A stretch of DNA of 64,000 nt from Thermoproteota archaeon (lineage in GTDB: Archaea; Thermoproteota; Thermoprotei_A; EX4484-217-1; JAPDJV01). The stretch's first letter is position 1. Each line of letters opens with the position of its first letter. The notes beneath the pieces were generated by a model. The model made no database searches and was not told the origin of the DNA. It saw only the letters and a program-made list of their open reading frames with translations. The DNA is taken from NCBI GenBank assembly GCA_029258925.1, contig JAPDJV010000004.1, positions 4,645-68,644 on the forward strand. The letters are read 5' to 3'. Below are positions 13,205-37,985 of this stretch, one piece after another. A program made the position numbers and the translations under genes.

Positions 13205-13861
13205 CTATACTTTGTCACCTCCTAATCCTGTTTGAAGTAATTTGTCTAGCTGTTGTTTTGATGCTAAGATTTTTATTGCTGTATACTCTATTCCCAAATC
13301 TATTAAATGCCATTCTAGGAGTGGCCATCGATCGCAAGGTACTAGAGCAAGTCTTGGTGCCAGCTTTACAGCGCCCATTTTCTCCAAGAGCCCCCGCGCC
13401 CTCCACTTATGCCCATTTTTGACCACGGTTACGCCTGTTAGTTTCCTCAACTTCGATTTCGGACCACTATACTTGAGGAGAATTATGTACGTGTAGTTTG
13501 GGGGCAGAGTTTTTAATGGCTCACACCTATAGCTATGGTAGAGTACTAGCCCCTCTTCGAGAGCCTTACGGTACACCCCTGACCTCTTGGCCTCCTCAAC
13601 TGTGACGGAGTAGGGTTGTATTATGGGTAAATTGTGTTCGTAAGCTTTATCCGAAAACATATTCATGCATTTTTCAACGGATTCCTCATCGTCGAACACA
13701 AGTAGCAAATCTATATCACTCTTACTTCTAGCCTCTCCACGTGCATAACTGCCATAGAGTACTATTTGAAGTATACTGGGGCACTCTTCCAACAACTCCT
13801 CTATTAATAGCTGTAGTCTCTCAATCACTAGGTTGAGGGGTAGAGCCAATGATTCTCTCAA
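13205..13861 (-). CDS. Minimal nucleotidyltransferase (MNT) with extra C-terminal domain
   Basis: LYGSYARG..SDIDLL motif plus about 100 aa C-terminal extension. Confidence 0.85.
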   Translation of the reverse strand: MRESLALPLNLVIERLQLLIEELLEECPSILQIVLYGSYARGEARSKSDIDLLLVFDDEESVEKCMNMFSDKAYEHNLPIIQPYSVTVEEAKRSGVYRKALEEGLVLYHSYRCEPLKTLPPNYTYIILLKYSGPKSKLRKLTGVTVVKNGHKWRARGLLEKMGAVKLAPRLALVPCDRWPLLEWHLIDLGIEYTAIKILASKQQLDKLLQTGLGGDKV

Positions 13862-14216
13862 CCTCCTGAACGAACTTTTCAGCTAACTCTAGAGAGCGTT
13901 TAGCTAGCCCACCGTTCTCAAGAGAGTATGTTGAGCGACCAGAATACCTTGCCAAATCATTAAACATTCTCACCAGTCTCCTATCAACTAGTCCACGTCT
14001 AACAGCCATGGTTAGCCAGTAAGCTCGTGAACTATGACTGTCTAATTCTTCAGCTTTACCGGGATCAAACCTATAAGCTAATGCTATAACCGCATGTTCT
14101 ACAGCGTGGAAACATAGTAGGGGAACACTATAATATGAACCACGCTTATAGAGTACTTGAGCATCTTCTAAGAACATTTTTGCAACGGCCAAATGCCTCT
14201 CCAATTCATTATGCAC
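13821..14216 (-). CDS. HEPN domain protein
   Basis: AKMFLEDA..Y..FHAVEHAVIAL..SH helical pattern; adjacent to MNT. Confidence 0.8.
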   Translation of the reverse strand: MHNELERHLAVAKMFLEDAQVLYKRGSYYSVPLLCFHAVEHAVIALAYRFDPGKAEELDSHSSRAYWLTMAVRRGLVDRRLVRMFNDLARYSGRSTYSLENGGLAKRSLELAEKFVQEVERIIGSTPQPSD

Positions 14217-15349: not shown

Positions 15350-16132
15350 ATGAGTTTGAGGAGAATTCTCGAAAAAGTGTCTGCTGGCGAGCTCAGCGTA
15401 GATGAGGCGGAGAAGGCTTTGAAAATATTTGCTTTAGAGGAGATCGGGGACTCTGTCAAATATGATTTGGGGAGGGAGTATAGGAGGGGTGTTCCGGAGA
15501 TAGTTTTCGGCGAGTACAAGGATGTTGAAGCCCTCAAGTCCATAATATTCAGAGTTGTTGAGAGAAGTGGGAGAGTTATTATTTCGAAGATTAGGGATGA
15601 TCAACTTAAGCTCGTGAAGAGTCTTGATGGGAGATTCGATGTTAAAATCAATGAGAGGGGTAGGATAGTGGTTGTCAGGAAGAAGGGCTTTAAACCCCCT
15701 AATACTGGTGGGAAAGTGGGGATTATAACAGCTGGAACAGCGGACATACACTTAGCTGAGGAGGCTAAGACCATTGTTGAGGAAATGGGTTGTAAAGCTG
15801 TTACAATATATGATGCTGGGATAGCGGGATTCCATAGAACGGTCAACGCTGTTAAGAAGATTGTTGAGGAAGATGTTGACGTATGTATTGTGATAGCTGG
15901 CATGGAGGGAGCTCTACCCTCAGTAATAACATCATTCCTAGACATACCGGTAATAGGTGTTCCATCATCTAAGGGCTACGGTTTCGGCGGGAGAGGAGTC
16001 TCGGCACTAATGTCAATACTTCAATCCTGCACTCTAGGACTGCTGGCCGTCAACATTGATAACAGTGTGGGTGCAGCAGTAGCAGCTGCTCTAATAGCAA
16101 ATAGGGTTGCTAAATATAGGTGTAGGAAGTGA
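15350..16132 (+). CDS. larB: NPN biosynthesis carboxylase/hydrolase LarB
   Basis: R.GVPEIVFGEYK, TAGTADI..AEEA, DAGIAG, AGMEGALPS, GVPSSKGYG, VNIDN. Confidence 0.95.
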   Translation: MSLRRILEKVSAGELSVDEAEKALKIFALEEIGDSVKYDLGREYRRGVPEIVFGEYKDVEALKSIIFRVVERSGRVIISKIRDDQLKLVKSLDGRFDVKINERGRIVVVRKKGFKPPNTGGKVGIITAGTADIHLAEEAKTIVEEMGCKAVTIYDAGIAGFHRTVNAVKKIVEEDVDVCIVIAGMEGALPSVITSFLDIPVIGVPSSKGYGFGGRGVSALMSILQSCTLGLLAVNIDNSVGAAVAAALIANRVAKYRCRK

Positions 16133-16151
16133 TGTTTGGAGAGGTGGTTTA

Positions 16152-17408
16152 ATGGGTAGGTTATTAATTTTTGATCCGAGAATAGCTGGTGTATCGGGAG
16201 ACATGATACTTGGAGCACTCCTGGATATAGGTGGAAGCGAGAGGGTTCTAGCAAAATTGGCTGAAGCTATTGAGAGAGAAGTAGATCATGTGGACGAGTT
16301 AAAGATTGAAGTGAGAGACGTTTGGAAGTGTGGGATAAAAGCTAAGAAACTCGAAGTAAACTTGAAGCAACACTTAGACCACCACCATCACGAGAGCGCT
16401 GTTGATCTAAGAGAAGACATGCTACGGGTAGCAGAGAGCATCAAGATAGGAGAGGAAACGTTGAACAAGGCTCTAAAAGCACTGGACCTGCTCATAGATG
16501 CCGAGTGCAGTGTTCACGGTGTTGAGAGGGAGAAAGCCCATTTCCACGAGCTAGCGTCAGCCGACACAATATTCGACATATTGGGGACGATGATGCTCCT
16601 AGAAGACTTGGGCTTCGCTGAAACCGGCTCAAAAATAGTTTCGCTCCCAGTTGCTGTGGGAGTGGGAGAAATACGTATGGAGCACGGAGTAATACCTGCT
16701 CCAGCCCCGGCAACGCTGGAGATAATAAGCTTGAAGAACATTCCATTCCTGCTTAAAAACGTTAACGCGGAGCTTGCAACACCGACGGGAGTAGCGCTTC
16801 TAGCATCAATAGTAGACGTGTTCGCGGACAATTTGCCTGTAGTAAGCGTTGAGAAAGTAGGTTATGGTGCTGGATGCAAAGATATTAAGAGAATACCAAA
16901 CGTTCTAAGAGTTTTCACAGCCAGAACTCTTGGAACCAGCATGATTGAGCCTATAGTAGTGCTTGAAACAAACGTGGACGACACTCCTGGCGAAGTAATA
17001 GGACATGCTGTGGACAAGCTTTTAATGGAGGGAGCGCTGGACGTCCAAGTACTGTTCTCCCTTGGGAAAAAGAACAGGCCATTCCATATAATACAAGTAT
17101 TAGCTAAGCCGGGTATGGAGGAGAAGCTTGCCAAAATATTGATGAGGGAAACAGGGACTCTCGGGGTTAGAGTACATGAAATATACAGGTACGTTGCTGA
17201 TAGAGTAGAAAAACCCATAGACATCGAGATTAGAGGGAAGAAGTACGAGCTTAGAATTAAGGAGTCTAAGCTTGAAACAGGCGAAATCGTCAACGTGAAA
17301 CCCGAATACGACGATCTGAAAAAGATATCTGAGGAAACAGGCGTTCCATTATCTAGGCTGAGAGCTAGCGTATTGAGGAAGGTCCTCGGAGGAGAATTTG
17401 GGAACTAG
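16152..17408 (+). CDS. larC: NPN biosynthesis nickel insertase LarC (full length, no frameshift)
   Basis: AGVSGDMILGAL, His-rich HHHH, HFHEL, PAPATLEI, TPTG, ETNVDD, KKNRP, ETGTLGVR, KPEYDD; ATG at 16152 after GAGGTGG. Confidence 0.95.
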   Translation: MGRLLIFDPRIAGVSGDMILGALLDIGGSERVLAKLAEAIEREVDHVDELKIEVRDVWKCGIKAKKLEVNLKQHLDHHHHESAVDLREDMLRVAESIKIGEETLNKALKALDLLIDAECSVHGVEREKAHFHELASADTIFDILGTMMLLEDLGFAETGSKIVSLPVAVGVGEIRMEHGVIPAPAPATLEIISLKNIPFLLKNVNAELATPTGVALLASIVDVFADNLPVVSVEKVGYGAGCKDIKRIPNVLRVFTARTLGTSMIEPIVVLETNVDDTPGEVIGHAVDKLLMEGALDVQVLFSLGKKNRPFHIIQVLAKPGMEEKLAKILMRETGTLGVRVHEIYRYVADRVEKPIDIEIRGKKYELRIKESKLETGEIVNVKPEYDDLKKISEETGVPLSRLRASVLRKVLGGEFGN

Positions 17409-17549
17409 ATTTGAAAAAGGTTTGAATTTTAAAAGTTTAAGCATATTTCTTCTTTTAGGTGTTACTAGTCTATTTTGAAGGTGTTAACACAAATTTAATT
17501 TATTTTTAAACTATAGTTAAAAAATAGAAATTGTGCAGAGGTTATAAAA

Positions 17550-19376
17550 TTGGAGTTTGAACGTGAAAAAGTTATTCTAGCCGCCACCATGGCGGCAACA
17601 TTTAAGCCCGATTTAATGACCAACGATAAAATAGAAGCTGCAACAAGGGGACATGGAACTCTAGTTATACCCGTCCTATGCGCTGCCAACTCTATAGCAG
17701 AAGACATTTTGAGAGGCATAGACGTAAAACTTGTTGACGCGTCAGCACCGGAAATACCGCTCGACATAATTGTTGAGAGAGCTATTAAAGCAGCTAAAAA
17801 CGCGGGGGCATCGCCTGAAAACGCGGCTCTAATAGTTGCAGCACTAGCATACTTCTCAGGTGCAGCGGCTAGAGCAGGAGTTCCAATGGCTAACAGGAAG
17901 CTTGGAGCACTTGCAAGAATACATGCTGGAGCATGCAGGACGAGCGCGATTGCCCTAGTAACAAACAAGTTTACTCATAGAATACCAGCATTCCCAGCTT
18001 ACAAAGCAGTATACGAGCTTCTACTCGAGAAGAAGCTTACGAGAGTTGACGGTGCAAAGCTTCCACCATTCATAGCTGGCGGAGCAATATATGGTCACAG
18101 CGCTCTAGGAGAAGACATTAACGTCCCGGAGCTAGCGAAGAACGCTGCGAAAGTGGCAACAGAGGCAATGATGAAGGCTATGGAGGGTGCTGGGATAACA
18201 GCATACCCCCTCTGGCCAGCTCTAATAGGTGCAGCAGTAACTATGGAAATAGTTCACCCAGACTCCTTCCTAGGAGAAGAGTATGGTCCATTCGGGACCG
18301 TTGACTCAGCTTATGCTGCAGGCTTAGGCGCAGTTGAAGCAGCTAAGCTACCTGCTAAAATACATGTTAGAGGTACTGGAGAAGAATTCGACACCGCGAA
18401 GGTTATAGGGGACTTCGGGCTGATATTGAAGGATATTGGAGGGCCATCCGTAATCGGCTCAATGGCATTGAACGAAATATTCGCTGGATTCCAGGAGTCA
18501 GCTATAATTGGAGCAGGCTTCTCAGGCGGACCGGTCAACCCGCCGCTGGGACACCTATGCGGAGATGTTGTTCCAGCAATAAGGCTACTATTGAAGCATG
18601 GAGGAGACGTGTATAAGGCAGCCGAGGACGTCAAGAAGTACAAGTTAGAATCTTTCATAGATCCCGAGATGGCTCTGTGTGCTCTAAACACTATTGCTAG
18701 GAAAGCGGAGGAGGTCATGAGAGGCCCAGTAACTAGAACACTGATATTGGCAAGCGAGGACACTAGGGATAGGGCAATCTATAGGAGAGCTGTGAAGGCA
18801 TACGAGATGATTAAGGCTGGGAAGAGCGTTGAGGAAGTTGCTAGAGTTCTAGACGAGGAGAGGAAGGAGTATGTTGAGAAGAGGGGTTCAATGATACTAT
18901 CCGCTTTCACAGGGAAGAAGATAGAGTTGAAGTTCACCGAGCTGAGACCACAAGCCAGGAGGAAGGATCCGTTCACGAAGAAGTACTGGGGATTCGACTC
19001 CTACATAAGCTACGATGTAGTGATAGAGGATAAGAAGTATCACATCGAAAACCTTTCAGCTAAAGCAGTACCGGAATACGTGTTGGAAGGTAAGGGTGCA
19101 GAAGACCCGCTCTACGGTCTAGCACTGTTCGCTGGAGCAGTTATTGCCCAGGAACTCCAGTACATTGGGCACACAATAATAAACGTCACTGTTCCAGCAG
19201 CAGTAGCAGCAATATTAGGCTTAGATCCAAAGGAGGCTGCTAAGGCAGCTGAGAGGGGAGCATACTTAACTAGGGCAATACCAGGAGCAAAGGAGAACGC
19301 TAAGGAAGTTGCGAGAATAGCCAAGAAAATATACGAGGCTCTCCTACAGGAGAAGCACGAAATCCTCCCACCCTAA
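17550..19376 (+). CDS. Hypothetical 608 aa Ala/Gly-rich protein embedded in the lar locus
   Basis: Long ORF with enzyme-like motifs GGAIYGHSALGED, EIVHPD and GGPVNPPLGHLCGD; no family recognised. Confidence 0.85.
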   Translation: MEFEREKVILAATMAATFKPDLMTNDKIEAATRGHGTLVIPVLCAANSIAEDILRGIDVKLVDASAPEIPLDIIVERAIKAAKNAGASPENAALIVAALAYFSGAAARAGVPMANRKLGALARIHAGACRTSAIALVTNKFTHRIPAFPAYKAVYELLLEKKLTRVDGAKLPPFIAGGAIYGHSALGEDINVPELAKNAAKVATEAMMKAMEGAGITAYPLWPALIGAAVTMEIVHPDSFLGEEYGPFGTVDSAYAAGLGAVEAAKLPAKIHVRGTGEEFDTAKVIGDFGLILKDIGGPSVIGSMALNEIFAGFQESAIIGAGFSGGPVNPPLGHLCGDVVPAIRLLLKHGGDVYKAAEDVKKYKLESFIDPEMALCALNTIARKAEEVMRGPVTRTLILASEDTRDRAIYRRAVKAYEMIKAGKSVEEVARVLDEERKEYVEKRGSMILSAFTGKKIELKFTELRPQARRKDPFTKKYWGFDSYISYDVVIEDKKYHIENLSAKAVPEYVLEGKGAEDPLYGLALFAGAVIAQELQYIGHTIINVTVPAAVAAILGLDPKEAAKAAERGAYLTRAIPGAKENAKEVARIAKKIYEALLQEKHEILPP

Positions 19377-19382
19377 CCTTTT

Positions 19383-19874
19383 TTAAATATTTACCTCAAG
19401 CATGCCGCTTAGAGCAGCTGACTCAACAATCCTCTTCATAAGTCTAATAGGCTTTATCACGCCTCTCTCACTTAAAATTCTACTGAGCCTAACCAGGTCG
19501 TCGAACTCCGCTTTAACGAACACTACTTCACCCTTATGGTAAACTCTTTTAACACGCACAGCCTCCTCCACCCCAGCCCTGCTACACTTAACAGTAACGT
19601 TGACAAAATCAAATGGTATACTATGATGAGCACACTCGATAACCCTGTAACCAGTGATCCCAAGCTCTCTCACCAACACTTCAACAACACCATCAACGTG
19701 CTCTTCGTCGACATCTATGAGAACAACATAACTTGGCCTATTCTTCTTCGAAATAGAGGGGATAACGTTTATACTGTTCACCTTAAGGGAACTCGATAAT
19801 TGAATTAAGTGTCCTATCGACTCACCCGTAGTGCTGTCAACACTTATTACCAGAAACATCAATATCTTCCTCAA
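19383..19874 (-). CDS. Stand-alone LarC C-terminal domain protein
   Basis: VDSTTGESIG, SKKNRP, RELGITGYR, KAEFDDL match the C-terminal half of LarC at 16152. Confidence 0.8.
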   Translation of the reverse strand: MRKILMFLVISVDSTTGESIGHLIQLSSSLKVNSINVIPSISKKNRPSYVVLIDVDEEHVDGVVEVLVRELGITGYRVIECAHHSIPFDFVNVTVKCSRAGVEEAVRVKRVYHKGEVVFVKAEFDDLVRLSRILSERGVIKPIRLMKRIVESAALSGMLEVNI

Positions 19875-22581: not shown

Positions 22582-23475
22582 TTATTTCTTCGCTTCTTTA
22601 ACCAAGTACTCCACTATTTTGCCTGCAATGTTCACTCTGGATACTGACTGAATGCCTTTCCAACCAGGCTGACTGTTCACTTCGAGAACACGATACTCTC
22701 CTCCATGTTCAACTATGTCTACACCAGCTATTCTGCAACCTATTATTTCAGCAGACCTCACCGCGAGCTCTCTGAGTTCCCCGGATGGTTTGAAGGGTTC
22801 CGGTATTGCCCCCCTAGCAATATTAGTCTTCCACTCCCCGCGCTTAACTTGTCTCCTAATCATTGATGCCACTACTTCCCCGTCTATCACAAATAATCTC
22901 AGATCTCTGCCCCCATGCTCTATGAATGGCTGCATATATGCTACTTTATGTATGAACTGTAGTTCTCCAAGTATTCTCCAAGCCTCATCGGGCTTCTCAA
23001 TGAGCATTGAACCCAGGCCCCTGGATCCGAACAGCGGTTTCAAGACCAGTTTGTTTTTCAGCTTGTCCACGTAGTTCATGGCAGCTCTGGGATTCTCTGT
23101 CACGAAGGTTTCGGGTACAGGTATGCCGTTCCTGGCTAGAACATGTAGTGTTCTAAACTTGTTTAATGCTATTTCAATAGAGCTCGGGGGATTGATTATT
23201 GGGATCCCATAATCTTCTAGGCCGTGTAGGAAGTCTAGTCTGAACATTGCTTCGTCGAGACTGCACTTCCCCAATGGTCTAACAAATCCAATGCCTAGCT
23301 CCTCAACTAAGTTAATTGTCTTATAGATGAATACCGTTTTCCCGCCGACTATGTGGGCACTAAGCCTCTTATAGCTTATTGGAACACATTTATGCCCCTT
23401 GTTCTCAGCCGCCCTACGTATACTATTAGTGGCCCATCCATTAATGTTCCTAGTGAAGACGCCTATTACTACCAT
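22582..23475 (-). CDS. RimK-family ATP-grasp alpha-L-glutamate ligase (MptN-like)
   Basis: KPLFGSRG, DLRLFV, WKTNIARG, AGVDI, LEVNSQPG; directly downstream of mch. Confidence 0.88.
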   Translation of the reverse strand: MVVIGVFTRNINGWATNSIRRAAENKGHKCVPISYKRLSAHIVGGKTVFIYKTINLVEELGIGFVRPLGKCSLDEAMFRLDFLHGLEDYGIPIINPPSSIEIALNKFRTLHVLARNGIPVPETFVTENPRAAMNYVDKLKNKLVLKPLFGSRGLGSMLIEKPDEAWRILGELQFIHKVAYMQPFIEHGGRDLRLFVIDGEVVASMIRRQVKRGEWKTNIARGAIPEPFKPSGELRELAVRSAEIIGCRIAGVDIVEHGGEYRVLEVNSQPGWKGIQSVSRVNIAGKIVEYLVKEAKK

Positions 23476-23504
23476 TACCCCACCTACTCTAAATAAAAAA
23501 TATT

Positions 23505-24464
23505 TTAATTTTCTTTTAATCCTATGCTTTCAAGGAATATTTTCGGATTCAGCTCTCCCGCCTGAATTGTTGCACCTGTTTCAACGTGTACGACTGCTAT
23601 TTTAGCTGGAGCAAACAGCCCCGGATCGATTTTATAGAAGTCTCCGCCAGCTTCCTCGAATATTTTAGAGAATGGCTTACCGTAGGAGGGAGAATTCAGT
23701 GAAGGTGTTTTCTCAACTATTTTCTTAAGCTTATAGAAATTCTCGTATGATATGTAGTAGTATGCTTCACCCATGTAGAGCTGTGCATCATTTGTTCTAC
23801 CCATGGCCTCGACGAATCTGGGGTGTCCCGGGGCAACTGGTGCTCTCCCTATGCCGGATACGAAGGAGTTTAATGGGAGGCCTAGAGTGTGCATTTTATG
23901 TATGCCTGTCTCAACTATTCTAGCACTTATTTGAACGCTTCCAGAAATACTCCGAGTCGGAGTTACTATCATGTATAGTCCTTCAGGGGAGACGCCCGTG
24001 CTATTGCAAAGGTATTCAACCACTTCCTCACTGGGTAATTCAAGAGATTCTAAAACTATCACTGTCTCGCTGCTCTCATCAGCATAGTTTAGTTCGTCGA
24101 ACAAATGCTTCGGTTTCTGGGAGAGTGCTCTAGCTGGACCGCTTCCCATAGCAAAATATTTCCCAACTCTTATAGACCAGCCAGCGTACTGGCTTGCCAT
24201 GCAGGCTATTGGAGGATTGTCTGTTGAAACAGTTACGTATGGTATGATCTTACCCTCTAAATCGCCCAGTGTAACAGATACTTTGCCAAGTCCTCCCATG
24301 CAGACTTCGGCTACAAGTCTTCCCGCCTCTAATCCGCCTCTAGCTCTCACTCCAGCATCTATGACTGTCGCACCCCTAATCTTCAACACATCTACTCGGA
24401 GCCTCCTAGCGTTGTCTAAGATTTTAGATATGATCTCCATTGCAAGCCTGTTAACACTTACCAT
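23505..24464 (-). CDS. mch: Methenyl-H4MPT cyclohydrolase
   Basis: ACMASQYAGW, FAMGSGPARAL, QISARIVETG, MGRTND, DFYKIDPGLFAPA. Confidence 0.97.
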   Translation of the reverse strand: MVSVNRLAMEIISKILDNARRLRVDVLKIRGATVIDAGVRARGGLEAGRLVAEVCMGGLGKVSVTLGDLEGKIIPYVTVSTDNPPIACMASQYAGWSIRVGKYFAMGSGPARALSQKPKHLFDELNYADESSETVIVLESLELPSEEVVEYLCNSTGVSPEGLYMIVTPTRSISGSVQISARIVETGIHKMHTLGLPLNSFVSGIGRAPVAPGHPRFVEAMGRTNDAQLYMGEAYYYISYENFYKLKKIVEKTPSLNSPSYGKPFSKIFEEAGGDFYKIDPGLFAPAKIAVVHVETGATIQAGELNPKIFLESIGLKEN

Positions 24465-25315
24465 GCTTCTACACCACCTACTTCAAGTAATTCTGCCAAT
24501 TCTTCAAGATACTTGTTTAAGTCTAGGTTTAAGTACAGTCTCCCCCTACCACCAACAACGCTGTCTCCTATCAACAACAATATTCTACCGGTTACAGCCC
24601 ATTTCCCCACTTTCCCCTTACTTAAAACGCTGTCAGGGTGGAAGCTTGGAAGAATTCTTGGAACAACTCCCCCAATAACTATTTTACCTTTAACCATTCT
24701 TGCACCTGGCAATCCATTGCAGCCCCCTCTAATAAATATTGATCCACCGATCATAGAGTATCCTGGCATTATCCCGGAGGATCCCTCGACAATTATTCTG
24801 CCCCCACTCATGCCCTCCCCTATGTAGGATCCAGCACTTCCATGTACTATGATCTCTCCTCCACTCATACCCTTACCGGGCTTCTCGCCTGGAAGCTTTG
24901 ACCCTAAATGGTCGCCTGCATTCCCGAAAACCTCTATAATGCCGTCTTTCATCTTTGACCCAAGCCAGGAGTCCGCGTTTCCCCTAACAATCATCATCCC
25001 GCCTTTCATCTTGTATCCTAGGAAGCAACCTGCTTCTCCCTCAATAATTATTCTACCCTCACTCATCTTGTAGCCAACATACCTGATCTTATTACTGCTA
25101 TCGATAATGAGTTCGACAGTGTCCTCGGGTTCAGGGCTACAGGAGACCTCGAATATTTCTCCTAACCTCAGCCTTGAATTCCCTTCCCAGACAGGTAGTT
25201 CGAGTATCTCCTTAATGCTCTTTCCCTTGATATTATCTGGGCTCATACTTCTCGCGTCAACTGGTACGTGGAATTCCTTCTTGGGTTGAATAAAGTATCT
25301 TGGCATGTACCGCAC
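24458..25315 (-). CDS. fwdC: Formylmethanofuran dehydrogenase subunit C
   Basis: GxxMxGG beta-helix repeats, VWEGN, LIGD. Confidence 0.93.
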   Translation of the reverse strand: MRYMPRYFIQPKKEFHVPVDARSMSPDNIKGKSIKEILELPVWEGNSRLRLGEIFEVSCSPEPEDTVELIIDSSNKIRYVGYKMSEGRIIIEGEAGCFLGYKMKGGMMIVRGNADSWLGSKMKDGIIEVFGNAGDHLGSKLPGEKPGKGMSGGEIIVHGSAGSYIGEGMSGGRIIVEGSSGIMPGYSMIGGSIFIRGGCNGLPGARMVKGKIVIGGVVPRILPSFHPDSVLSKGKVGKWAVTGRILLLIGDSVVGGRGRLYLNLDLNKYLEELAELLEVGGVEAW

Positions 25316-25318
25316 CTT

Positions 25319-27031
25319 TCATAAGAGTGTTTTCACGGGAATCTCCCTAGGCTTCCTGATCTCGCTGAGATCTACGATGAAGTTTGAGTACTGAATTGAA
25401 TAGTAGTATGGAAACATTTCCCTCACTTTATCAACAATAGTTTTAGACAGGTCTTCCGGGATCTCCGGTTTAACGTAGAGTGTCGAACCATAAGTTTCCT
25501 CTACTACTCTCCCCCCTCTAACAACTATTCTCCCGTCTTTGAAGACGTATTCTGCTCTCGATAAGGCTTTTTCAACGATCTTCCAGTCTCTCGAGGGATC
25601 CACTTTCCCCGGGTCGATATTGTATATTGCTATGTCTGCTTGAGCCCCTATCCCCAGATGCCCCTTGAAGTCTTCTAATCCCAAAAGCTTTGCTGGTGCA
25701 GCCCTTGTTGCTATAATTATGTCGTTGAAATCGAATTCCTCGTCTACTGCTGGTAGAGCAGTTTTCTTAAGAGCCCTCCTATTAACCTTCTTCATCTCCT
25801 CTTCTCTAGCACGCCTACTCATAAGCCACGCTATGACTCTAGGATACTTAGTGAATGGCCCTGCGTTCGGATGGTCTGTTGTAATAAATGTTCTCCAAGG
25901 ATCTTTCGTCAACAATGCTACTTCTAAACCTATAGTCCACTGAACAGTGTTAACATAGTTCCTTCTCCTATACCTGTAGGGGACTATTCCGGAAGCAGTT
26001 TCTGCTTCAACGTCTGCGAAAGCCCACTTCCACCTAGATATGTGGAATAATACGTGTTCGAAGGGGGCATCTGCCGTCATTGTTGTGACCGAACCGAATA
26101 TTATTTGACCCAGATCCACGCTGGCATTCCTCTGCCTCCTCAAAATCCTAGCTATTTCCTCTCCCCCGCTTCCAAGAGTTGCCCAAGTACTCCCCTTGTA
26201 CCCCGTGAACTGGACGTGAGTTATGTGCATGGATATCTTGTTTCCCGTAGAGTACTTGGAGGATAATTCTAGTGTTCTAGTTGTTGTCGAATAGTTGCCG
26301 GGATAGCCCAGTCTATTGCAGTGGACATGTATTGGGTGTGGCAGGTTTAGCAGGGTGCTTGCCTCCCCGAGCATCAATATTATTTCTCTAGGCGTCAAAT
26401 TGTATTCTGGAAGCTGTGTATCCAAGTCTATACCATACCCTTTCCCATATAGCCATGCTAGATCTGCTCCCGGGTCAACTATTTTAACTCCGTAACCCTT
26501 GGTTGCGTGGAGAAGCCAGGCAATGTAGCCTGCAAGCCCCTTCAAGTCTCCCTCTGAAATATAGTCTAGTGCGATCCAGTTCGAGTCCATTAATATTAGA
26601 GTCATCTTATCGATTATTGGAATAGAATCCAACTCCTCATGAGTATGCCTCGTTTTAAGCGGTGGACTAGCTGCCTCAACCACTGTCGTGTAGCCTAGGC
26701 GAGCATAACCGTAGCCTATTTTATACACGTTTGGAACAGTTCTCCCCGTCTGAGACCTTAGACCCATTTTCCCGGGGATGTTAGTGAGGTAGTGGTCTTC
26801 TACCATCATAACTCTGCCAGTGTTGACTTTGGGTCCAGCAATATGCGAGTGTACATCTATTCCTCCAGGAACGACCATCATTCCCCTTGCATCTACTACA
26901 ATAGTCTCCCTGGGGTCTAGGGATGATGGGTCAACTATTACCCCGTTCCTTAACCCTATATCAATTACCTCTCCCTCGACACCGTTTAGGGGATCGTAGA
27001 CTATTCCCCCTTTTATCAGGAAACTCTTCAA
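25319..27031 (-). CDS. fwdA: Formylmethanofuran dehydrogenase subunit A
   Basis: VYDPLNG, GGIDVHSHIAGPKVN, HVHCN, HITHVQF, TTDHPNAGPF. Confidence 0.97.
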   Translation of the reverse strand: MKSFLIKGGIVYDPLNGVEGEVIDIGLRNGVIVDPSSLDPRETIVVDARGMMVVPGGIDVHSHIAGPKVNTGRVMMVEDHYLTNIPGKMGLRSQTGRTVPNVYKIGYGYARLGYTTVVEAASPPLKTRHTHEELDSIPIIDKMTLILMDSNWIALDYISEGDLKGLAGYIAWLLHATKGYGVKIVDPGADLAWLYGKGYGIDLDTQLPEYNLTPREIILMLGEASTLLNLPHPIHVHCNRLGYPGNYSTTTRTLELSSKYSTGNKISMHITHVQFTGYKGSTWATLGSGGEEIARILRRQRNASVDLGQIIFGSVTTMTADAPFEHVLFHISRWKWAFADVEAETASGIVPYRYRRRNYVNTVQWTIGLEVALLTKDPWRTFITTDHPNAGPFTKYPRVIAWLMSRRAREEEMKKVNRRALKKTALPAVDEEFDFNDIIIATRAAPAKLLGLEDFKGHLGIGAQADIAIYNIDPGKVDPSRDWKIVEKALSRAEYVFKDGRIVVRGGRVVEETYGSTLYVKPEIPEDLSKTIVDKVREMFPYYYSIQYSNFIVDLSEIRKPREIPVKTLL

Positions 27032-27032
27032 A

Positions 27033-28817
27033 TTACTCCCCCCTAAGCCTCCTGACTCTGCTGAGTATTTCCAGTAGTATTCGGTGGTCTTCCATTACGC
27101 CTGTCGGCGGCTCGATGATTTTCTTAACTCTGAGGGGAACCCCGTCCATTCTATACGCTGTTCCCCCAGCTTCTACGCCGCTCATAGCTGAGGGTATGAC
27201 AACATCTGCTATCATAGCTGTTAGACTCCACTTGGGGTCGACGACTATTAATGGGATTTTCGAGAGGTTTTCAACTGCTTTCCGGGGGAAGTGGGCTACT
27301 GGATCGCTTGCAATTATCAATGCTGCATCAACATCTCCCCTGATCAACGCGTCCGTTGCTGTTGTGAGGCCCGGTATGAATTTCGGTATCCCCCTCATGA
27401 AGTCCACGCTAAACGGGTATCCTGTTAACCAGGTTGAAACTTGACATGCCCCTGTAACATTGTAGTGTCCCCTCATAGGTACGACTGTGAACCTCGTCCA
27501 ATCGTTTAAGTCGTGGGCAAGCTTGATTAACTCCTCTAGGCTCCTGTACCTGGGCTCGTTCATCGTGAGACCCATGCCGAAGAACCCTACGCCGTACTTG
27601 CAACTTCTAAGAGCATCGGCTAGCTCGTATATTTTCTCCCTTGGAACCCCTGCTACGGTGGATTGCTCTATATCTAGGTCTTTGACGGCCATTCTCAGAG
27701 CAGTTATGAGCTCGTAGTCTTTGCCGGGCTCAACCATTATGAATTCGTCTGCCATCCTAGCTGTAGCAGTTCTCCTAACATCTATGACTATAACTCTTCT
27801 ATCCTTCCTCCCCTTAACATGCTTCCCGCCCTCGATAACCCATCTCTTAAAGTGGTTTGGGTGGGCCTCGGCTGGATTACATCCCCAGAACAATATTAGG
27901 TCTGCTAGATGCCTCACTAATCCTAGGGTGCATCTCGCTGCACCGGCTTCCATAACGCCTATTGTCGTTGGGCCATGGCAGACAACAGTAGTGTTATCTA
28001 TTATTGCACCAAGGTATTCGGCCAACTCCACTCCAACAATTATTGCCTCGTTGACTGTTGAACTTAAACCGAATATTAATGGATGTTTTGATGAAGCAAG
28101 TATTTCAGCTGCCTTATCCAGTGCCTTGGGAAGCGTGCATTCTTCTAGGAGGCCGCTGGGACTCCTAATGTATGGTTTAACTATTCTATCCCTATGGTAA
28201 TTTCTTATCTTGGATGAGCCCAGCGGGCATGCTCCCACAACTTTTTCAACAATGTTACCGTTGAGGTGTACTTTGATGAAGTCGCACAGGTCTCCGCAGA
28301 AGGGGCAGACGAAGTCTTCTATAATCTTCTTCTCGCCCTCCCTTAAATCTAGTTCAACAGGGTGTGCATCAACTCTCCTACCAGTTATTATACTGACTAG
28401 CTCCTCCACGCTGGGGACTTGTTCCTCTGTTGGCCTTACTTTAGCTGGGATATTCTTGTACTTCGGCATTCCCGTTCCATCTGTTAGTGGGCAGACCACG
28501 GCGTTTGCCCATGGACCCATTGGGATAAAACCTGTGCCTCTAGGTAGACCTGGATCAATTGAAACGTTGACTACTATAGCACCATGTTCTGTTTCAACTC
28601 TCACCCTACTATTCTTCTCGACACCTATTAACTGGGCGTCTTCAGGGTTTAAGCTGAGTGTTGAAGCTGAAAGCCTGTACCTCCTACTCCTCTTTCCCTC
28701 AGCTTCCATGCTCATTCCTTGAACTAGACTCCTCCCCGTCACCAGCAATATTTCTAGCTGGCGCCTCTCCCCAAGCTTCTCTTCAAGCGCCTCCTGCACG
28801 ATGCTCGTTGAAGTCAA
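27033..28817 (-). CDS. fwdB: Formylmethanofuran dehydrogenase subunit D-B fusion
   Basis: N-terminal FwdD (TGRSLVQG..FIPMGPWAN..GMPKYK) followed by FwdB (CPFCGDLCD, TVVCHGP, WGCNPAEAHP, PMRGHYNV). Confidence 0.95.
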   Translation of the reverse strand: MTSTSIVQEALEEKLGERRQLEILLVTGRSLVQGMSMEAEGKRSRRYRLSASTLSLNPEDAQLIGVEKNSRVRVETEHGAIVVNVSIDPGLPRGTGFIPMGPWANAVVCPLTDGTGMPKYKNIPAKVRPTEEQVPSVEELVSIITGRRVDAHPVELDLREGEKKIIEDFVCPFCGDLCDFIKVHLNGNIVEKVVGACPLGSSKIRNYHRDRIVKPYIRSPSGLLEECTLPKALDKAAEILASSKHPLIFGLSSTVNEAIIVGVELAEYLGAIIDNTTVVCHGPTTIGVMEAGAARCTLGLVRHLADLILFWGCNPAEAHPNHFKRWVIEGGKHVKGRKDRRVIVIDVRRTATARMADEFIMVEPGKDYELITALRMAVKDLDIEQSTVAGVPREKIYELADALRSCKYGVGFFGMGLTMNEPRYRSLEELIKLAHDLNDWTRFTVVPMRGHYNVTGACQVSTWLTGYPFSVDFMRGIPKFIPGLTTATDALIRGDVDAALIIASDPVAHFPRKAVENLSKIPLIVVDPKWSLTAMIADVVIPSAMSGVEAGGTAYRMDGVPLRVKKIIEPPTGVMEDHRILLEILSRVRRLRGE

Positions 28818-28819
28818 TA

Positions 28820-29668
28820 TTATGGTCGCCTCGGCTTCTCCAAGAGCTTTTCCTTAACGAGTATTGTCCCGTCGGAGTGGTGCGGTTTTCTCTCCAACGT
28901 GTCACCGTATTTCTCTATCTCTCTTGCTTCATCAGCTAGTCTAGCCGCTACTCTCATGGCTTCGTGTGCTGCTGCAACGATTAAAGTGTACTTCTCCCTC
29001 TCCTTTACCTTGAAGCATCCCTCCGTTGTTAAATCGGCTACTCTTCTTGCAATCTCGTATGCTGCCATTGCTTTAGCTCTAGCATACGGGTTTCTGAATC
29101 CCGCTCTCTCAACAACCCACTTGTCCACAACGATCTTCGGTAAGACAGGTTTCTCCCCCTTCTTAAGTGCTTCAACAACCTTATCTATTTCCTCATATAG
29201 TAGTCTGAATACCCCCGTTATAGATAACACTTTTATGATGTCGCTGTTGTACAGTGCCATTTCAACTGGGTCGAGAAACTCTCTTCTAGCACCTATCATT
29301 GAGTCGCCTAACACTATTATGTAACCGAACCCCCTTTCCTCCAAGTCCCCCACTATCTTCTTCGTAGGCGCGTCTGAGATCACTATTACAGGTTTGCCTG
29401 CTGCAAGCAATATTTCCCTCGCTCTCGTTGGCCCGGGTAGTGTTGCATTAGGGCTTACGACAATGTATAAGTCGTGGTCTCCTCCCAGAGCCCTGTTTGC
29501 AACTTCTTCTCCATAGGTTTCGGAGAACATTTTCGCGCCTGTTGAATAAACTCTCACTTCAATATCTTTTCTATCGGCTCTCTCATCTAAGAGATATTCT
29601 ATTAGGACTGCTGATCCTATTGCACCCATTTTAACTACTCCAATACTTATGGGTTTTACTTCACCCAA
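28820..29668 (-). CDS. mtd: F420-dependent methylene-H4MPT dehydrogenase
   Basis: LLDERADR, SPNATLPGP, DSMIGARREFLDPVEMA, NPYARAKA, AAHE. Confidence 0.97.
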   Translation of the reverse strand: MGEVKPISIGVVKMGAIGSAVLIEYLLDERADRKDIEVRVYSTGAKMFSETYGEEVANRALGGDHDLYIVVSPNATLPGPTRAREILLAAGKPVIVISDAPTKKIVGDLEERGFGYIIVLGDSMIGARREFLDPVEMALYNSDIIKVLSITGVFRLLYEEIDKVVEALKKGEKPVLPKIVVDKWVVERAGFRNPYARAKAMAAYEIARRVADLTTEGCFKVKEREKYTLIVAAAHEAMRVAARLADEAREIEKYGDTLERKPHHSDGTILVKEKLLEKPRRP

Positions 29669-29718
29669 CCATTTCCACCTCCAAACACCATTACCATAAT
29701 TACGTGAAGCACGGGAAA

Positions 29719-30645
29719 TTACGGGTTGAATCCTTTTTCAAGAGCAAGCTTGATTGCATCCTTCAAGTAGATCTTATATGGGCCGAGGCTTCCCCCATAA
29801 TTGCCTGCATCTATCTTCACTATTCCAGGCACCTTGGAGGCTTCTATAGCTGCAACACCCATCGCTAAAGCGACGCTCTTAAGATTTAAACCATTTATTA
29901 CAATCTCGTATACGCAGTTCACGTTCTCCGGGATCTTAGTCTCCTCGACAATATCTCTTATTGTTGGACAATAATAATGGTTTGTTGTTGCACGGAGCTT
30001 GGGGTACTTTATGCTTCCAACCTTAGAGCCCGATCTAACTATGCCTCCCGGGAAAGGTGTTATTACATGCCTACAGTTTTCACGTATTGCTTTTACTGCT
30101 CTCTCAGCTGCTTCAAGCCCCGAATCCAAGCTTTCAGCGAGAATTAGTATATTTCCTCCGGCAACACCCTTAACAACCCCGAACACATCCTCTATTATGA
30201 ACTCTCCCTCCATTACCGGTATTCTCCAAATAGTCCTACCATTAAGAACATCCTTTTTCTCGAATCCATCTCCAAATTTAGCTAAAGCTCTCCCAACATG
30301 TATTTTCCTCTTAACCCTTGGAAGACCATCCCATGCTGCAGTTGTTGGACAAGTGAGTATTGTTTGCCCAACTCTAAGAGTCACCTGGCCTTTGAGCTCG
30401 GGAACACCTAGATGATAGATTTGTATGAGTGCTCCAATCCTCCCATCCGGAGTCTTCTCCCCCGGCACAATTCTTTCAATCCCTGCCTCAGCTGGACTCA
30501 TTATAATAGAAGTTGCAAAACCTGTTGCAACGCTTGCAGCCGTCAGAGCCCACTTTTCATTTCTGGCTGTAACAAGTATTCTGGTTGCATACATGGGGAA
30601 TGCCTCGGCAAAAGTATCCTCAATAATCACGTTATTAATTTTCAA
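29719..30645 (-). CDS. ftr: Formylmethanofuran:H4MPT formyltransferase
   Basis: IEDTFAEAF, ATGFATSII, TPDGR, LTCPTT, PFPGGIVRSGSKVGS, AGNYGG. Confidence 0.97.
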   Translation of the reverse strand: MKINNVIIEDTFAEAFPMYATRILVTARNEKWALTAASVATGFATSIIMSPAEAGIERIVPGEKTPDGRIGALIQIYHLGVPELKGQVTLRVGQTILTCPTTAAWDGLPRVKRKIHVGRALAKFGDGFEKKDVLNGRTIWRIPVMEGEFIIEDVFGVVKGVAGGNILILAESLDSGLEAAERAVKAIRENCRHVITPFPGGIVRSGSKVGSIKYPKLRATTNHYYCPTIRDIVEETKIPENVNCVYEIVINGLNLKSVALAMGVAAIEASKVPGIVKIDAGNYGGSLGPYKIYLKDAIKLALEKGFNP

Positions 30646-30972: not shown

Positions 30973-32505
30973 GTGAGTTTTATGGTAAGTCCCGAAGTTT
31001 TAAAGAAAATGGTTAATGATCTTCTAGCTGTTCAAAAAGCTGACATAGCTGTTATAAAAGAGAAGAGAGGCGGGGTATTCAAGGTTGCAGACGCTAAGCC
31101 GTACGTGGACGCAGTTAAGAAGATGGAAGCATTGGAGGGCATGAAGAAGGAGGTCATCGACTTACATGTTAAAAGCGTTGAGCTACACTTCGAAATATTA
31201 AACGACATATGTGTTGACAACACTATTAGGCCCGAGGACGACCCATTTGTAGAGCACTACCAGACACCTGCAATCCTGGAAATACTATACGACCTAGACC
31301 CGGCGCTCAGGGAGAGCGTTGAGAAATTCGTCAACTCCTTCGACGTGAAGGACATTAAGGCAATAATAGGGAAGGAGGCTATTAGGAGGTATACTGGTTT
31401 CTACGGTCCAACATGTGTGGTAGACTTCGCTGTTTCAGCTGGGAGCACTTCAGGACTATTCGGCTTCATACTGGACAGACTAGACATACCGAAGAAGTAT
31501 AAGGAGACTATCCTAGCAGCCAAGAGCTGGGGTATGAACACAAGCTATGGTTTCGGTACAGCATTCACCGAGGCTATGGAGGCAGGCAAGACTGTTGAGG
31601 AGGCACTTGCAACCGAAATAGAGTGGTTGAAGAAGATATGGTTGACACCAGTTGACGCTCAAGTAGAGTTGATGAAGAAGCTCGGACACAAGAGCTTCGA
31701 TCCAGCAGTCTACGAGAAGAGGTATAAGGAGGGCATTAAGCCCTATGTTAAGGCGGCATTAGACGCTGGAGTGAGTGAAGCAAACATTGTGGTTGTTCCA
31801 GCATACTGTGTTGGAGACGTTGGGCACCACATTGCCCAGAGCATGTACAACATGGCTAAAGACGACGTAGTAATGGCAATACTTGAAGCAGTAACATGTA
31901 CCCTCGAGAAGAACATAACTAAAGCATTAGAGGAGGGCAAATTAAAGAACGAATACGCTGTTCTAAGCTTCGCAGGAGGAACAACTGCTGCAGCAACAAC
32001 ATTCATACTAGGCTTAGACGGATTCACAGTGCCAATGGTAGTCGACTTGTTAACTAAGAGATTCTTCAACTACGTGCAGAAGTATCCTGGAAGAGGACAG
32101 GCAGCAGAACTACACAACGTCGACTTCATGGACATGCTTGTTAGAGGAGAGAAAATAATCGCACCGCCACCAATAGGCAAGGGCGGTATACTCAAGGGTG
32201 TCAAACTAGACTTCTCACCAATACTAGAAAACGAGGTAATCATGAACCCGCAGAGGTATACCTATCCTGGATGCGCTATCACAGTGAGGTTCTCAGCTCT
32301 GATGAGGCTAGCTGACTTCCCATGCCTACTGACAAGCGAGCCCGTAACTGCCACTGTGAACACCTATATCGTAGCACTGCACCCAGATGTACCAGTATCA
32401 CCACCACTCATATGCAAGGACTGTGCTGTAGCCAGATTGATGAGTGGAAGAAGATTCCACTGCTACTATAGGGTGGGAGTGGCAAAAGAGAAACCACTCT
32501 ACTAA
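30973..32505 (+). CDS. DUF2193 family protein with C-terminal Cys cluster
   Basis: DAKPYVD, PEDDPFVEHYQTP, GFYGPTCVVDFA, KSWGMNTSYG, YCVGDVGHH, CKDC..C. Confidence 0.85.
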   Translation: MSFMVSPEVLKKMVNDLLAVQKADIAVIKEKRGGVFKVADAKPYVDAVKKMEALEGMKKEVIDLHVKSVELHFEILNDICVDNTIRPEDDPFVEHYQTPAILEILYDLDPALRESVEKFVNSFDVKDIKAIIGKEAIRRYTGFYGPTCVVDFAVSAGSTSGLFGFILDRLDIPKKYKETILAAKSWGMNTSYGFGTAFTEAMEAGKTVEEALATEIEWLKKIWLTPVDAQVELMKKLGHKSFDPAVYEKRYKEGIKPYVKAALDAGVSEANIVVVPAYCVGDVGHHIAQSMYNMAKDDVVMAILEAVTCTLEKNITKALEEGKLKNEYAVLSFAGGTTAAATTFILGLDGFTVPMVVDLLTKRFFNYVQKYPGRGQAAELHNVDFMDMLVRGEKIIAPPPIGKGGILKGVKLDFSPILENEVIMNPQRYTYPGCAITVRFSALMRLADFPCLLTSEPVTATVNTYIVALHPDVPVSPPLICKDCAVARLMSGRRFHCYYRVGVAKEKPLY

Positions 32506-33647: not shown

Positions 33648-34661
33648 ATGAACATTATAGGTGTCTCCGAGAGGTATGGAATTATTGAGGGAGTATACTT
33701 CAAGGTCTTCGATAACTCGATATTTTACTCCAAGGGAATAGTTCATCCGCCATGGGGCGTAGTGGGATATCCCAAGTATGTTCCAGATGAAAGAGGCAGT
33801 AGAGTCTCTCCTAGTGGGGTAAGATATGTTAAGTATGAAGGTTTACATGAGCAATCCAAAGTGTTGAAGGAACGCTATAATTGGACTTTAAGGTTTGATA
33901 AATGTTTTGGAACAGTTGTACCAATAATACCGTTATCCAGCATCAGGGAAGTTTATGATCCAATAATAAAGCTCTCTTCGATGAGAATCGAAGACCCAAG
34001 TAGTCCCGTAGTGGAGTTGGCGGAGGTCTTAGGGGAGGCAGCTGGCTGGAATAATGTTGGAATATCTGGTTCACGTCTTGTCGGATTAGATGTCGAGGGC
34101 TCCGACATAGATCTAGTAGTGTACGGGGTTGAGGAGGGCTCTAAGGCGTATGCGAAGCTTAAGGAGGCTTTCATGGAGATCGAGGATTTCAGGGGTTATA
34201 GGGAAGGAGAATTACTGAAACTTTACATGGCGAGAGCCAGGGAAACACCGTTATCTCTCCAAGAATTTTCTAGACAGCAGTCTAGGAGAGTTCTTGAGGG
34301 CTTCTTCAAGGATGTAGAGTACTTTATTAGGATAATTGACCCCGGGGCCGAACCCCCCTACTCTAGTTATAGGAGTATTAGCTTGGGCACTGTTGTTGTT
34401 AGGGGCGTTGTAGTAGATTCTTCCAAGAACTATTTCACTCCGGTTACTTATAGCGTGGAAGTCGAGGAAGTGCTATGTGGAACTAGTAATGCAGTGGACG
34501 CTACAAGCCTCTACAGTCTTAGAGGAAGGTTCTGCGAGATTTTACTAGATGGCGAAAGATTTGAGGCTGGAGGTAAGCTTGAGAAACTGATATACGAGGA
34601 TGGGAGTGAGGTTTTCAGAATATATCTTGGTTACAAAGGGGACTATGTTAGGATCCTTTAA
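33648..34661 (+). CDS. Predicted nucleotidyltransferase (COG1665-like), paralog 1
   Basis: KGIVHPP..YPKYVP, GISGSRL..SDIDLVVYG, G.FCE..GKLE. Confidence 0.75.
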   Translation: MNIIGVSERYGIIEGVYFKVFDNSIFYSKGIVHPPWGVVGYPKYVPDERGSRVSPSGVRYVKYEGLHEQSKVLKERYNWTLRFDKCFGTVVPIIPLSSIREVYDPIIKLSSMRIEDPSSPVVELAEVLGEAAGWNNVGISGSRLVGLDVEGSDIDLVVYGVEEGSKAYAKLKEAFMEIEDFRGYREGELLKLYMARARETPLSLQEFSRQQSRRVLEGFFKDVEYFIRIIDPGAEPPYSSYRSISLGTVVVRGVVVDSSKNYFTPVTYSVEVEEVLCGTSNAVDATSLYSLRGRFCEILLDGERFEAGGKLEKLIYEDGSEVFRIYLGYKGDYVRIL

Positions 34662-35733
34662 TCCACCTTAAGGGCTTAATGTAGTCTCTTCCACCTGCCT
34701 CGAAAGATCCAACAACTATCCTATGGTACTCTTCTCCCCTCCTGATGTCTCTCACATGCTCAAGTTTGCCGTAAACCAGTATTTTCTCTCCTGGAGACGC
34801 TAGGTCGCAGTATAGTCCCTCGTAGCTTGTGACTTCGACAATATTCCTGCTACTGGGCCCCTCAACAACTTTCACATAGTCTACGAGGTATGTTGCTGGG
34901 AGGAATATGGAGTCGGAGCTATCTACAACCCTTGCAACAGCTTTAACCATCCCTATCCCCCTGAAAACTCTATCTCCATAGTTCTCCGTAACCTCATCCT
35001 CCCTCTTAACAGGGTGAACGGAGAACTGTCTTCCCCTAAATAAGGCCCTATTCCACTTATCCCTACCATATAACATTCTTGCCTCGCTCAATGTGAGGGG
35101 ATGTATTTTAACAATATTCTCAGCCCACTTCTCCAGAATACTGCCACTCGCCATTTCGAATCCTGATTTAGGGTCTGAATACAGTTCTAGTAGAGCATCC
35201 TTTACCTTCAAGCTCTCCCGTCTACCGTAAACTATTAGATCTATGTCGGAGAACTCCACGTTATGTATTTTAAGTAGTATGGAGCCCGAGATCCCCATTG
35301 AAGTAGGGGGCACACCCGACTTCTCAGAGAGTATTGAAACTATTTCGATAACCTCTTCTTCTAAGAGGTCTGCGGGTGACCTCAATATTTCAGCGAGTCT
35401 CTCCTCAGGTCTGTAATGTTTCTTAATCTTATTTTTTGGAACCTCGATTAACTTGAACCCCAGTACTCTATCATACGTAATGTAATCTGGGTACATTTTT
35501 TCCAAGAACTCCATCACCCTTCCAACGCCTTCGGCACTGTAGTATGGAAGTATTCTCCCATACAACGTGCCTCTCTTAGACCACTTAACTCTATGTCCGG
35601 CATCGTATCCTGGAACATACTTCAAGTAAGCTATTACCCTATCCGGTGGATGGATGTTTCCTATGACACAGAACATGAGGCCCTCAAGGGTTTCAAGGAA
35701 GTCTCTGTCAGCGAACTCTCTCAAATCAATCAC
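34648..35733 (-). CDS. Predicted nucleotidyltransferase (COG1665-like), paralog 2
   Basis: GNIHPP..AYLKYVP, GISGSIL..SDIDLIVYG, GLYCD..GKLE. Confidence 0.8.
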   Translation of the reverse strand: MIDLREFADRDFLETLEGLMFCVIGNIHPPDRVIAYLKYVPGYDAGHRVKWSKRGTLYGRILPYYSAEGVGRVMEFLEKMYPDYITYDRVLGFKLIEVPKNKIKKHYRPEERLAEILRSPADLLEEEVIEIVSILSEKSGVPPTSMGISGSILLKIHNVEFSDIDLIVYGRRESLKVKDALLELYSDPKSGFEMASGSILEKWAENIVKIHPLTLSEARMLYGRDKWNRALFRGRQFSVHPVKREDEVTENYGDRVFRGIGMVKAVARVVDSSDSIFLPATYLVDYVKVVEGPSSRNIVEVTSYEGLYCDLASPGEKILVYGKLEHVRDIRRGEEYHRIVVGSFEAGGRDYIKPLRWIKGS

Positions 35734-37881: not shown

Positions 37882-37985
37882 TCCTATGAGGAAATCAGTT
37901 AGTTGGCGCTTAAGTATTATTGGGTCATTTTGACTCTTATAGTATATTAAAAGTTAGCTTATTGTTACAGGTGCGCGATTTGTAT

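Follow-up and report, generated by a model that had tools for sequence, protein, structure and literature searches.

The nickel-pincer nucleotide (NPN) is the cofactor of the LarA family of lactate racemase and other 2-hydroxyacid racemases and epimerases (Lar_N, PF09861). The chemistry known for it is hydride transfer, and when covalently attached it increases the mass of a protein by approximately 450 Da (PMC13524815). LarC, which consists of LarC1 and LarC2, is a CTP-dependent cyclometallase (PMC13510736), and a single-turnover mode of action has been suggested for both LarC and LarE (PMC11796402). Approximately 15% of genomes possess larB, larC, and larE without larA, and a system for the co-expression of lar genes in E. 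coli has been published (PMC11796402). Clients of the cofactor other than LarA exist (PMC13524815), and just two client folds other than that of LarA were found in the accessible part of the nickel-pincer literature. NphT, a nickel-pincer hydride transferase with the aldo-keto reductase fold (a TIM barrel, PF00248), was picked out by its adjacency to LarC in a study that profiled Pfam co-occurrence around LarC (PMC13524815). An ornithine cyclodeaminase with an adenine dinucleotide form of the pincer (Desguin 2025, as cited in PMC13524815) belongs to a Rossmann-type family and shows that the cofactor occurs in variant forms and in unrelated folds. Many microbes make the nickel-pincer cofactor without LarA, and a concrete, widespread candidate for a client is described here: X608, our name for the 608-amino acid (aa) product of the open reading frame (ORF) at positions 17550-19376 of a 64,000-nucleotide stretch of DNA from a Thermoproteota archaeon (contig JAPDJV010000004.1; hereafter, the window).

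X608 holds the position that LarA has in classic lar operons, beside larB, larC, and larE, and would use the same cofactor. The two proteins share no sequence relation: X608 has no Pfam match, and a profile comparison (hhalign) with the LarA of its own genome gave a probability of 0.2%. X608 also appears to differ from LarA in its predicted all-alpha fold, for which no solved structure was matched, LarA included, and it has a LarC paralog of its own and a methanopterin gene context. Like NphT, it is not a LarA protein, stands out by its adjacency to LarC, contains conserved His and Lys residues, and would be expected to carry out hydride transfer; unlike NphT, it belongs to no Pfam family and would therefore not appear in a Pfam co-occurrence profile around LarC such as that of PMC13524815. 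X608 has no sequence link to the ornithine cyclodeaminases, and it lacks the domains of LarC, its constant genomic partner. Taken together, X608 is best explained as the founder of an uncharacterized all-alpha family that works with the NPN pathway. That it is itself an NPN-dependent enzyme of a new fold, which would bind the cofactor and serve methanopterin-linked metabolism, is the reading we favor, with confidence evenly balanced between its being right and wrong. The initial annotation had likewise proposed a client of a fold different from that of LarA. Judged from sequence, this candidate stands and is stronger than before, because its homologs are tightly linked to lar genes, no characterized family or solved fold was matched, and most of the genomes that encode it lack LarA; a role as a maturation helper is the alternative.

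In the window, larB (15350-16132, + strand, 260 aa; NF033503, 223.3 bits against a cut-off of 175) overlaps by 26 nt the start of a full-length larC (16107-17408, + strand, 433 aa), which encodes both LarC1 and LarC2 of the CTP-dependent nickel insertase (PF01969, E 3e-110; TIGR00299 and NF052512, the models for LarC1 and LarC2, each exceed their cut-offs). Next, at a distance of 141 nt, comes the gene for X608 (+ strand, TTG start), a member of an uncharacterized conserved family, on which a stand-alone LarC2-domain gene converges (19383-19874, - strand, 163 aa; NF052512, 55.5 bits against a cut-off of 50), the two stop codons lying 6 nt apart. The 163-aa ORF covers only the LarC2 part (PF01969 positions 246-365 of 375). 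The larE gene is cut by the window edge (2-457, - strand; TIGR00268, 139.6 bits for the cut piece against a cut-off of 150) and encodes 282 aa when read whole on the contig. ORF and family scans thus bore out the arrangement described in the initial annotation. Its statement that larA is missing holds for the window but not for the genome (98.4% complete), which has one full LarA homolog on a different contig (149 bits, 442-aa open frame). Two RNA-library runs on a single marine-sediment sample yielded contigs that agree with X608 at 99% or above over 17555-18343 and 18883-19339; they lie inside X608 only, and the uncovered parts prove nothing. They give a weak hint that X608 is expressed, as RNA libraries may contain DNA. 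The complete LarE contains a CxxC pair and a third Cys within a PCLAS motif. This pattern presumably resembles the iron-sulfur type of LarE more than the sacrificial type.

The linkage to LarC was followed in an archaeal set (the best 80 of 113 loci of relatives, from species genomes) and in a bacterial set (the best 80 of 299 loci, from metagenomes, with the bacterial branch as query). When all genes within 7 kb of X608 were clustered for the 76 archaeal-set loci with a whole X608 ORF, a LarC cluster was present in 64 of them, on the same strand in every case. LarC lay directly downstream of X608 in 55 of the 76, with a median gap of 27 nt, and the next neighbor clusters occurred in at most 18 and were lineage-specific. 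A strict count was limited to loci in which X608 has flanks of 1.3 kb or more in both directions. A LarC-type gene lay no farther than 600 nt away in 59 of 62 such archaeal-set loci, with the arrangement larB-larC-larE-X608 in the remainder (three), and in 30 of 31 bacterial-set loci, the remaining one having larC2-larB-larC1 just upstream. Over the 160 loci, a LarC-type gene is the sole neighbor of X608 that is constant across lineages. X608 shows the linkage to larB, larC, and larE across lineages that would be expected of an enzyme of the nickel-pincer functional class.

The X608-LarC pairing persists while gene order varies by lineage. By record label, the order is larB-larC-larE-X608 or larC-X608 in Thermoproteota-labelled bins, X608-larC in Methanomicrobiales, Methanothrix, and Archaeoglobi, and X608-larC2-larB in Thorarchaeota and relatives. 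In Bacteria it is always X608-larC2, extended to larC1-X608-larC2 in 10 of the 46 loci whose upstream flank measures 1 kb or more. In Asgard, Synergistota, and most bacterial loci, the gene after X608 encodes LarC2 only. Bacterial islands, as in locus L147 (5942-9740 and 11853-12389), hold both a whole larC, on the opposite strand, and a split pair, larC1 (274 aa) and larC2 (178 aa), which flank X608 on either side.

Co-occurrence was examined in 50 of the 80 species genomes of the archaeal set. LarC was over cut-off in all 50, LarB in 47 (with one further gene split), and LarE in 47. LarA passed its cut-off in 14 genomes, three of which have only 24-25 bit matches to about 50 model positions in 370-aa frames. 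Most genomes with X608 thus possess LarB, LarC, and LarE, with full-length LarA in just 11 of 50 and in none of the Methanomicrobiales-type genomes by title, including four single-contig Methanocorpusculum chromosomes. Most Methanomicrobiales-type genomes with X608 contain two full LarC genes. In an even sample of 201 genomes from the phylum that holds Methanoculleus, at least two LarC matches were found in 22 of 22 genomes with X608 vs. 14 of 179 others (Fisher p ~3e-20, a value to be read with the reservation that related genomes are not independent and that counts of matches do not equal counts of gene copies). In a tree built from 42 full-length LarCs, from which five rows shorter than 330 aa were left out, the 15 X608-adjacent LarCs of the same phylum fall in one clade (SH-aLRT branch support 99). 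This clade groups with Thermoproteota LarCs, including the larC product of the window, and is separate from the second LarCs found in the same genomes; three of these second LarCs are on very long branches and may stem from incorrect frame extraction. X608 thus travels with its own LarC lineage.

X608 is a real, strongly conserved gene family. The initial annotation had called it an orphan, which it is not: of the 8000 candidates scored in a word-indexed search, 816 proved to be relatives at E <= 1e-3, with 61-100% identity among the 120 relatives listed. Named relatives come from Methanothrix, Methanoculleus, Methanofollis, Methanomicrobium, Methanolacinia, Methanocorpusculum, Archaeoglobus, and Thorarchaeota. 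The range of the family comprises Methanomicrobiales, Methanothrix, Archaeoglobi, some Thermoproteota, Thorarchaeota, and anaerobic bacteria, and its cultured carriers, by record name, include Methanothrix soehngenii, Methanoculleus, and Methanocorpusculum. An exhaustive search of 1.84 billion representatives yielded 173 clusters at E <= 1e-3, fragments in the main; close archaeal relatives form a single 50% cluster, and about 15 more full-length clusters are 38-50% identical to X608, the named ones coming from Anaerolineae, Bacillota/Clostridiales, and similar anaerobic bacteria. JGI records name some homologs methylthioribose-1-phosphate isomerase, a name for which no curated family match was found at E <= 0.01; other records call them hypothetical proteins. 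Three X608 contigs (L037, L006, and L007) sit in bins labelled Desulfuromonadaceae, Aenigmatarchaeota, or Odinarchaeota and are 69-86% identical to methanogen or Thermoproteota copies, probably as a result of binning errors or recent transfer.

No family of Pfam or NCBIfam matched X608 at E <= 0.01. This includes Lar_N and the C-terminal domain of LarA, as well as PF01969, TIGR00299, and NF052512, which both flanking genes match. Nor does X608 show the features of an aldo-keto reductase, with no Pfam match to PF00248 and just five short strands in its model. The single sequence retrieved nothing from PDB at E <= 10, and a profile retrieved a designed Ala-rich repeat (2.9e-7), an uncharacterized protein (0.0023), and nothing else; ESM Atlas gave no usable match. 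The 29 archaeal members aligned have a mean column identity of 65% and approximately 190 invariant positions. The three His-centered motifs pointed out in the initial annotation are present at residues 181-189, 233-238, and 332-339, and their histidines (H183, H236, and H335) are invariant in all 29. Across 41 archaeal and bacterial members, H35, K117, K140, H183, H236, H272, K294, H335, and K385 are invariant or at least 90% conserved, as are many Asp, Glu, Arg, and Asn residues, and no conserved Cys was seen in alignments of either group. A membrane protein is unlikely, as the best 19-residue Kyte-Doolittle window scores 1.64 and holds conserved polar residues. Internal duplication was likewise rejected, as a comparison of the N-terminal with the C-terminal half (hhalign) gave a probability of 1.1%.

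The initial annotation had described X608 as helical and rich in Ala and Gly, in agreement with its composition (16.3% Ala, 8.2% Gly) and with an AlphaFold2 model built from the 29-row alignment (predicted local distance difference test score, pLDDT, 84.9; predicted template modeling score, pTM, 0.87), which consists almost entirely of helices and one small sheet. Its low-confidence loops (28-35, 107-112, and 326-334) coincide with the most conserved motifs, and several invariant His, Lys, Asp, Glu, and Arg residues lie partly on them. Fold searches covered the whole model and the N-terminal half. A Foldseek comparison of the whole model with PDB gave nothing at E <= 0.001 (best 0.14), and the top score of a wide search against every chain was Z 5.7, to 80 residues of a designed helical repeat. 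When just the N-terminal 335 residues were modeled (pLDDT 82.9), the best score was Z 6.0 over 87 residues, and Foldseek gave no match. LarA has an alpha/beta two-domain fold, in contrast to the near all-helical model of X608, and no LarA chain was among the rows of the fold search, a missing match that excludes no fold. At the level of the model, then, we found no known fold for X608, and a missing match is no proof of novelty. A predicted complex of X608 with the LarC2-only protein scored 0.00 in a run without controls, which counts neither way.

A tie between X608 and one-carbon genes of the methanopterin/methanofuran pathway is new here. At a distance of 3-11 kb from X608, the window contains a compact cluster on the - strand (22582-30645) that encodes, by Pfam/NCBIfam matches, an MptN-like ATP-grasp protein (22582-23475), Mch (23505-24464), an FwdC-like protein (24458-25315), FwdA (25319-27031; TIGR03121, 713 bits), an FwdD/B fusion (27033-28817; TIGR03129, 501 bits), an F420-type Mtd (28820-29668), and Ftr (29719-30645). 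The same types of genes flank X608 in other Thermoproteota loci and in bacterial islands, and are also found around X608 in L011, L013, and L069. Bacterial X608 genes lie inside complete methanopterin/methanofuran islands on a single strand. The order common to long contigs, as in L147, begins with DUF2193, a Dmr-like flavoprotein, beta-RFAP synthase, (larE, larB, larC1), and X608 and continues with larC2, an MtdA-like protein, ATP-grasp, FwdD, FwdB, FwdA, Ftr, FwdC, Mch, MptN-like / MptA-HPPK fusion, and a DHPS-like protein. One-carbon genes were found in 37 of the 80 bacterial-set loci, including 9 of the 12 in which both flanks reach 6 kb or more, and a one-carbon or methanopterin-synthesis gene in 19 of the 80 archaeal-set loci. 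In 11 archaeal-set loci, MptA (TIGR00294, 426 bits) is encoded approximately 205 nt upstream of X608; in L068, X608 is preceded by genes for beta-RFAP synthase, a flavoprotein, a DHPS-like protein, and MptA, in this order. Of the 50 genomes with X608, 48 contain Mch, including all seven with Thermoproteota-type labels and both Synergistota, and one of the two without it, G021 (locus L037), has a doubtful bin label. A literature search, with most subscription journals and supplements outside its scope, gave no account of the X608 family or of a connection of lar genes with methanopterin.

Two genes of the islands were considered as obligate partners of X608. DUF2193, which opens the bacterial methanopterin/X608 islands, was rejected: it is found in 52 of the 201 genomes of the Methanoculleus-phylum sample but in just 13 of the 22 with X608. 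In the window, the DUF2193 protein (510 aa, 30973-32505, + strand; PF09959, E 1e-217) adjoins Ftr, and tblastn matches to it occur in 10 of 80 loci. As to the MtdA-like protein, the Mpt_N model was unmatched in the genome of the window and likewise in every control genome.

According to the favored reading, the pincer ligand would be made by LarB and LarE, and nickel would be inserted by the LarC encoded beside X608, which is often a second, dedicated LarC, a split LarC1/LarC2 pair, or a LarC2-only protein. X608 would then receive the cofactor from LarC, hold it with its conserved His and Lys residues, which lie on flexible loops, and catalyze a reaction of the hydride-transfer type. Enzymes of the nickel-pincer class bind the cofactor through a His ligand to nickel and often through a Lys thioamide tether. 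Gene context points to a substrate area that may be either a step in the synthesis of tetrahydromethanopterin (H4MPT) or a one-carbon unit bound to a carrier, methanopterin or methanofuran. Methanomicrobiales use pterins of the tatiopterin type. If LarC and LarE act in single turnovers, an abundant client would need matching amounts of LarC, a possible reason why a client would have a LarC of its own. More tentatively, X608 may constitute, together with the LarC or LarC2 dedicated to it, a second nickel-pincer system not seen before, in which an enzyme of entirely new fold would perform hydride transfer in methanopterin biosynthesis or on a one-carbon unit bound to methanopterin or methanofuran; this full version is possible but rather doubtful. 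Such a system would be common to Methanomicrobiales, Methanothrix, Archaeoglobi, some Thermoproteota, Asgard, and anaerobic bacteria. If true, the biochemistry surrounding methanogenesis and the archaeal Wood-Ljungdahl pathway would gain a new nickel cofactor. The tie to methanopterin and methanofuran genes suggests that this pathway, on which both methane formation and the anaerobic fixation of carbon center, includes an unrecognized step that depends on nickel, and the extra LarC that accompanies X608 bears on how LarC hands over its product.

Several observations weigh against this reading. Conserved His and Lys residues are not specific to the nickel-pincer cofactor, and an adjacent dedicated LarC or LarC2 fits a maturation role equally well as that of a client. 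The MtdA-like Rossmann protein encoded after larC2 in the bacterial islands could itself be the client, and in the genome of the window the lar genes already have a known client, LarA. In the Methanoculleus-phylum sample, LarC is found in 192 of the 201 genomes and X608 in 22, so that 170 of the 192 LarC-bearing genomes lack X608. X608 is therefore not the general missing client in that phylum, whose genomes must have further users of the pincer cofactor. In a second sample, 201 genomes of the window's own phylum, Mch occurs in 50 and X608 in the genome of the window alone. As 49 of the 50 Mch-bearing genomes do without it, X608 cannot be a core enzyme of the methanopterin pathway and is accessory to methanopterin metabolism. 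The genome labels, moreover, derive from metagenome bins, some of them plainly misplaced, and related genomes are not independent.

The alternative that survives best is that X608 is a helper in maturation of the pincer cofactor, which, together with LarC or LarC2, makes, modifies, or delivers a variant cofactor for another enzyme. One possibility would be a variant in which the cytidine nucleotide is retained, analogous to the adenine dinucleotide cofactor reported for ornithine cyclodeaminases, and the MtdA-like protein that follows larC2 in the bacterial islands could then be the true client. The invariable proximity of a LarC-type gene, the placement of X608 between larC1 and larC2 in the ten bacterial loci, and the extra LarC of X608 genomes are all consistent with such a role. 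So are the function of LarC2 as the CTP-binding part that CMPylates the ligand (PMC13510736) and the cited precedent of a dinucleotide variant (PMC13524815). However, the standard pathway, as given in PMC13524815 and PMC13510736, names LarB, LarE, and LarC only, and X608 is missing from most LarC-bearing genomes (170 of the 192 mentioned above). The Mpt_N domain expected of the MtdA-like protein is unmatched in the genome of the window, by a model that matched no control genome either. Moreover, 608 residues with approximately 190 positions invariant across archaeal phyla exceed the needs of a typical chaperone. We regard a maturation role as unlikely, yet with a real chance of proving correct.

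Less probable still is that X608 is a protein of the methanopterin/methanofuran pathway that does not bind the pincer cofactor and adjoins lar genes since both serve one pathway, in which, for example, another enzyme uses the cofactor. The embedding of X608 in islands for methanopterin synthesis and one-carbon metabolism, as well as the near-universal presence of Mch in X608 genomes, would be explained in this way. The closeness of LarC would not: it directly follows X608 at the short distance described above in most archaeal loci, whereas a methanopterin gene is nearby in just 19 of 80, and the X608-LarC pairing is far tighter than that with any methanopterin gene. A third alternative, in which X608 is a nickel-dependent protein and its LarC-like partner a plain nickel-delivery factor without a pincer ligand, would draw on the His-rich nickel site of LarC1 (PMC13510736) and on pairing with LarC, not LarB or LarE, in most archaeal loci, but is very improbable given that LarB and LarE each exceed their cut-offs in 47 of 50 X608 genomes, that larB and larE share an operon with X608 in Thermoproteota and bacterial loci, and that some partners are LarC2-only proteins without the nickel-binding LarC1 part.

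Several further genes of the window were recorded in passing. Beyond the one-carbon cluster, two ORFs without a Pfam/NCBIfam match (33648-34661, + strand, 337 aa; 34648-35733, - strand, 361 aa) sit between F420-related genes (F420_ligase-like and CofC-like). A 437-aa ORF (37920-39233, + strand) combines two domains, one MtrA-like (residues 40-189) and one thymidylate-synthase-like (residues 321-436). On the other side, between a DTD2 gene and the lar genes, a nucleotidyltransferase gene (218 aa) and an overlapping HEPN-domain ORF (131 aa) form a pair at 13205-14216 (- strand) that has the look of a toxin-antitoxin module.

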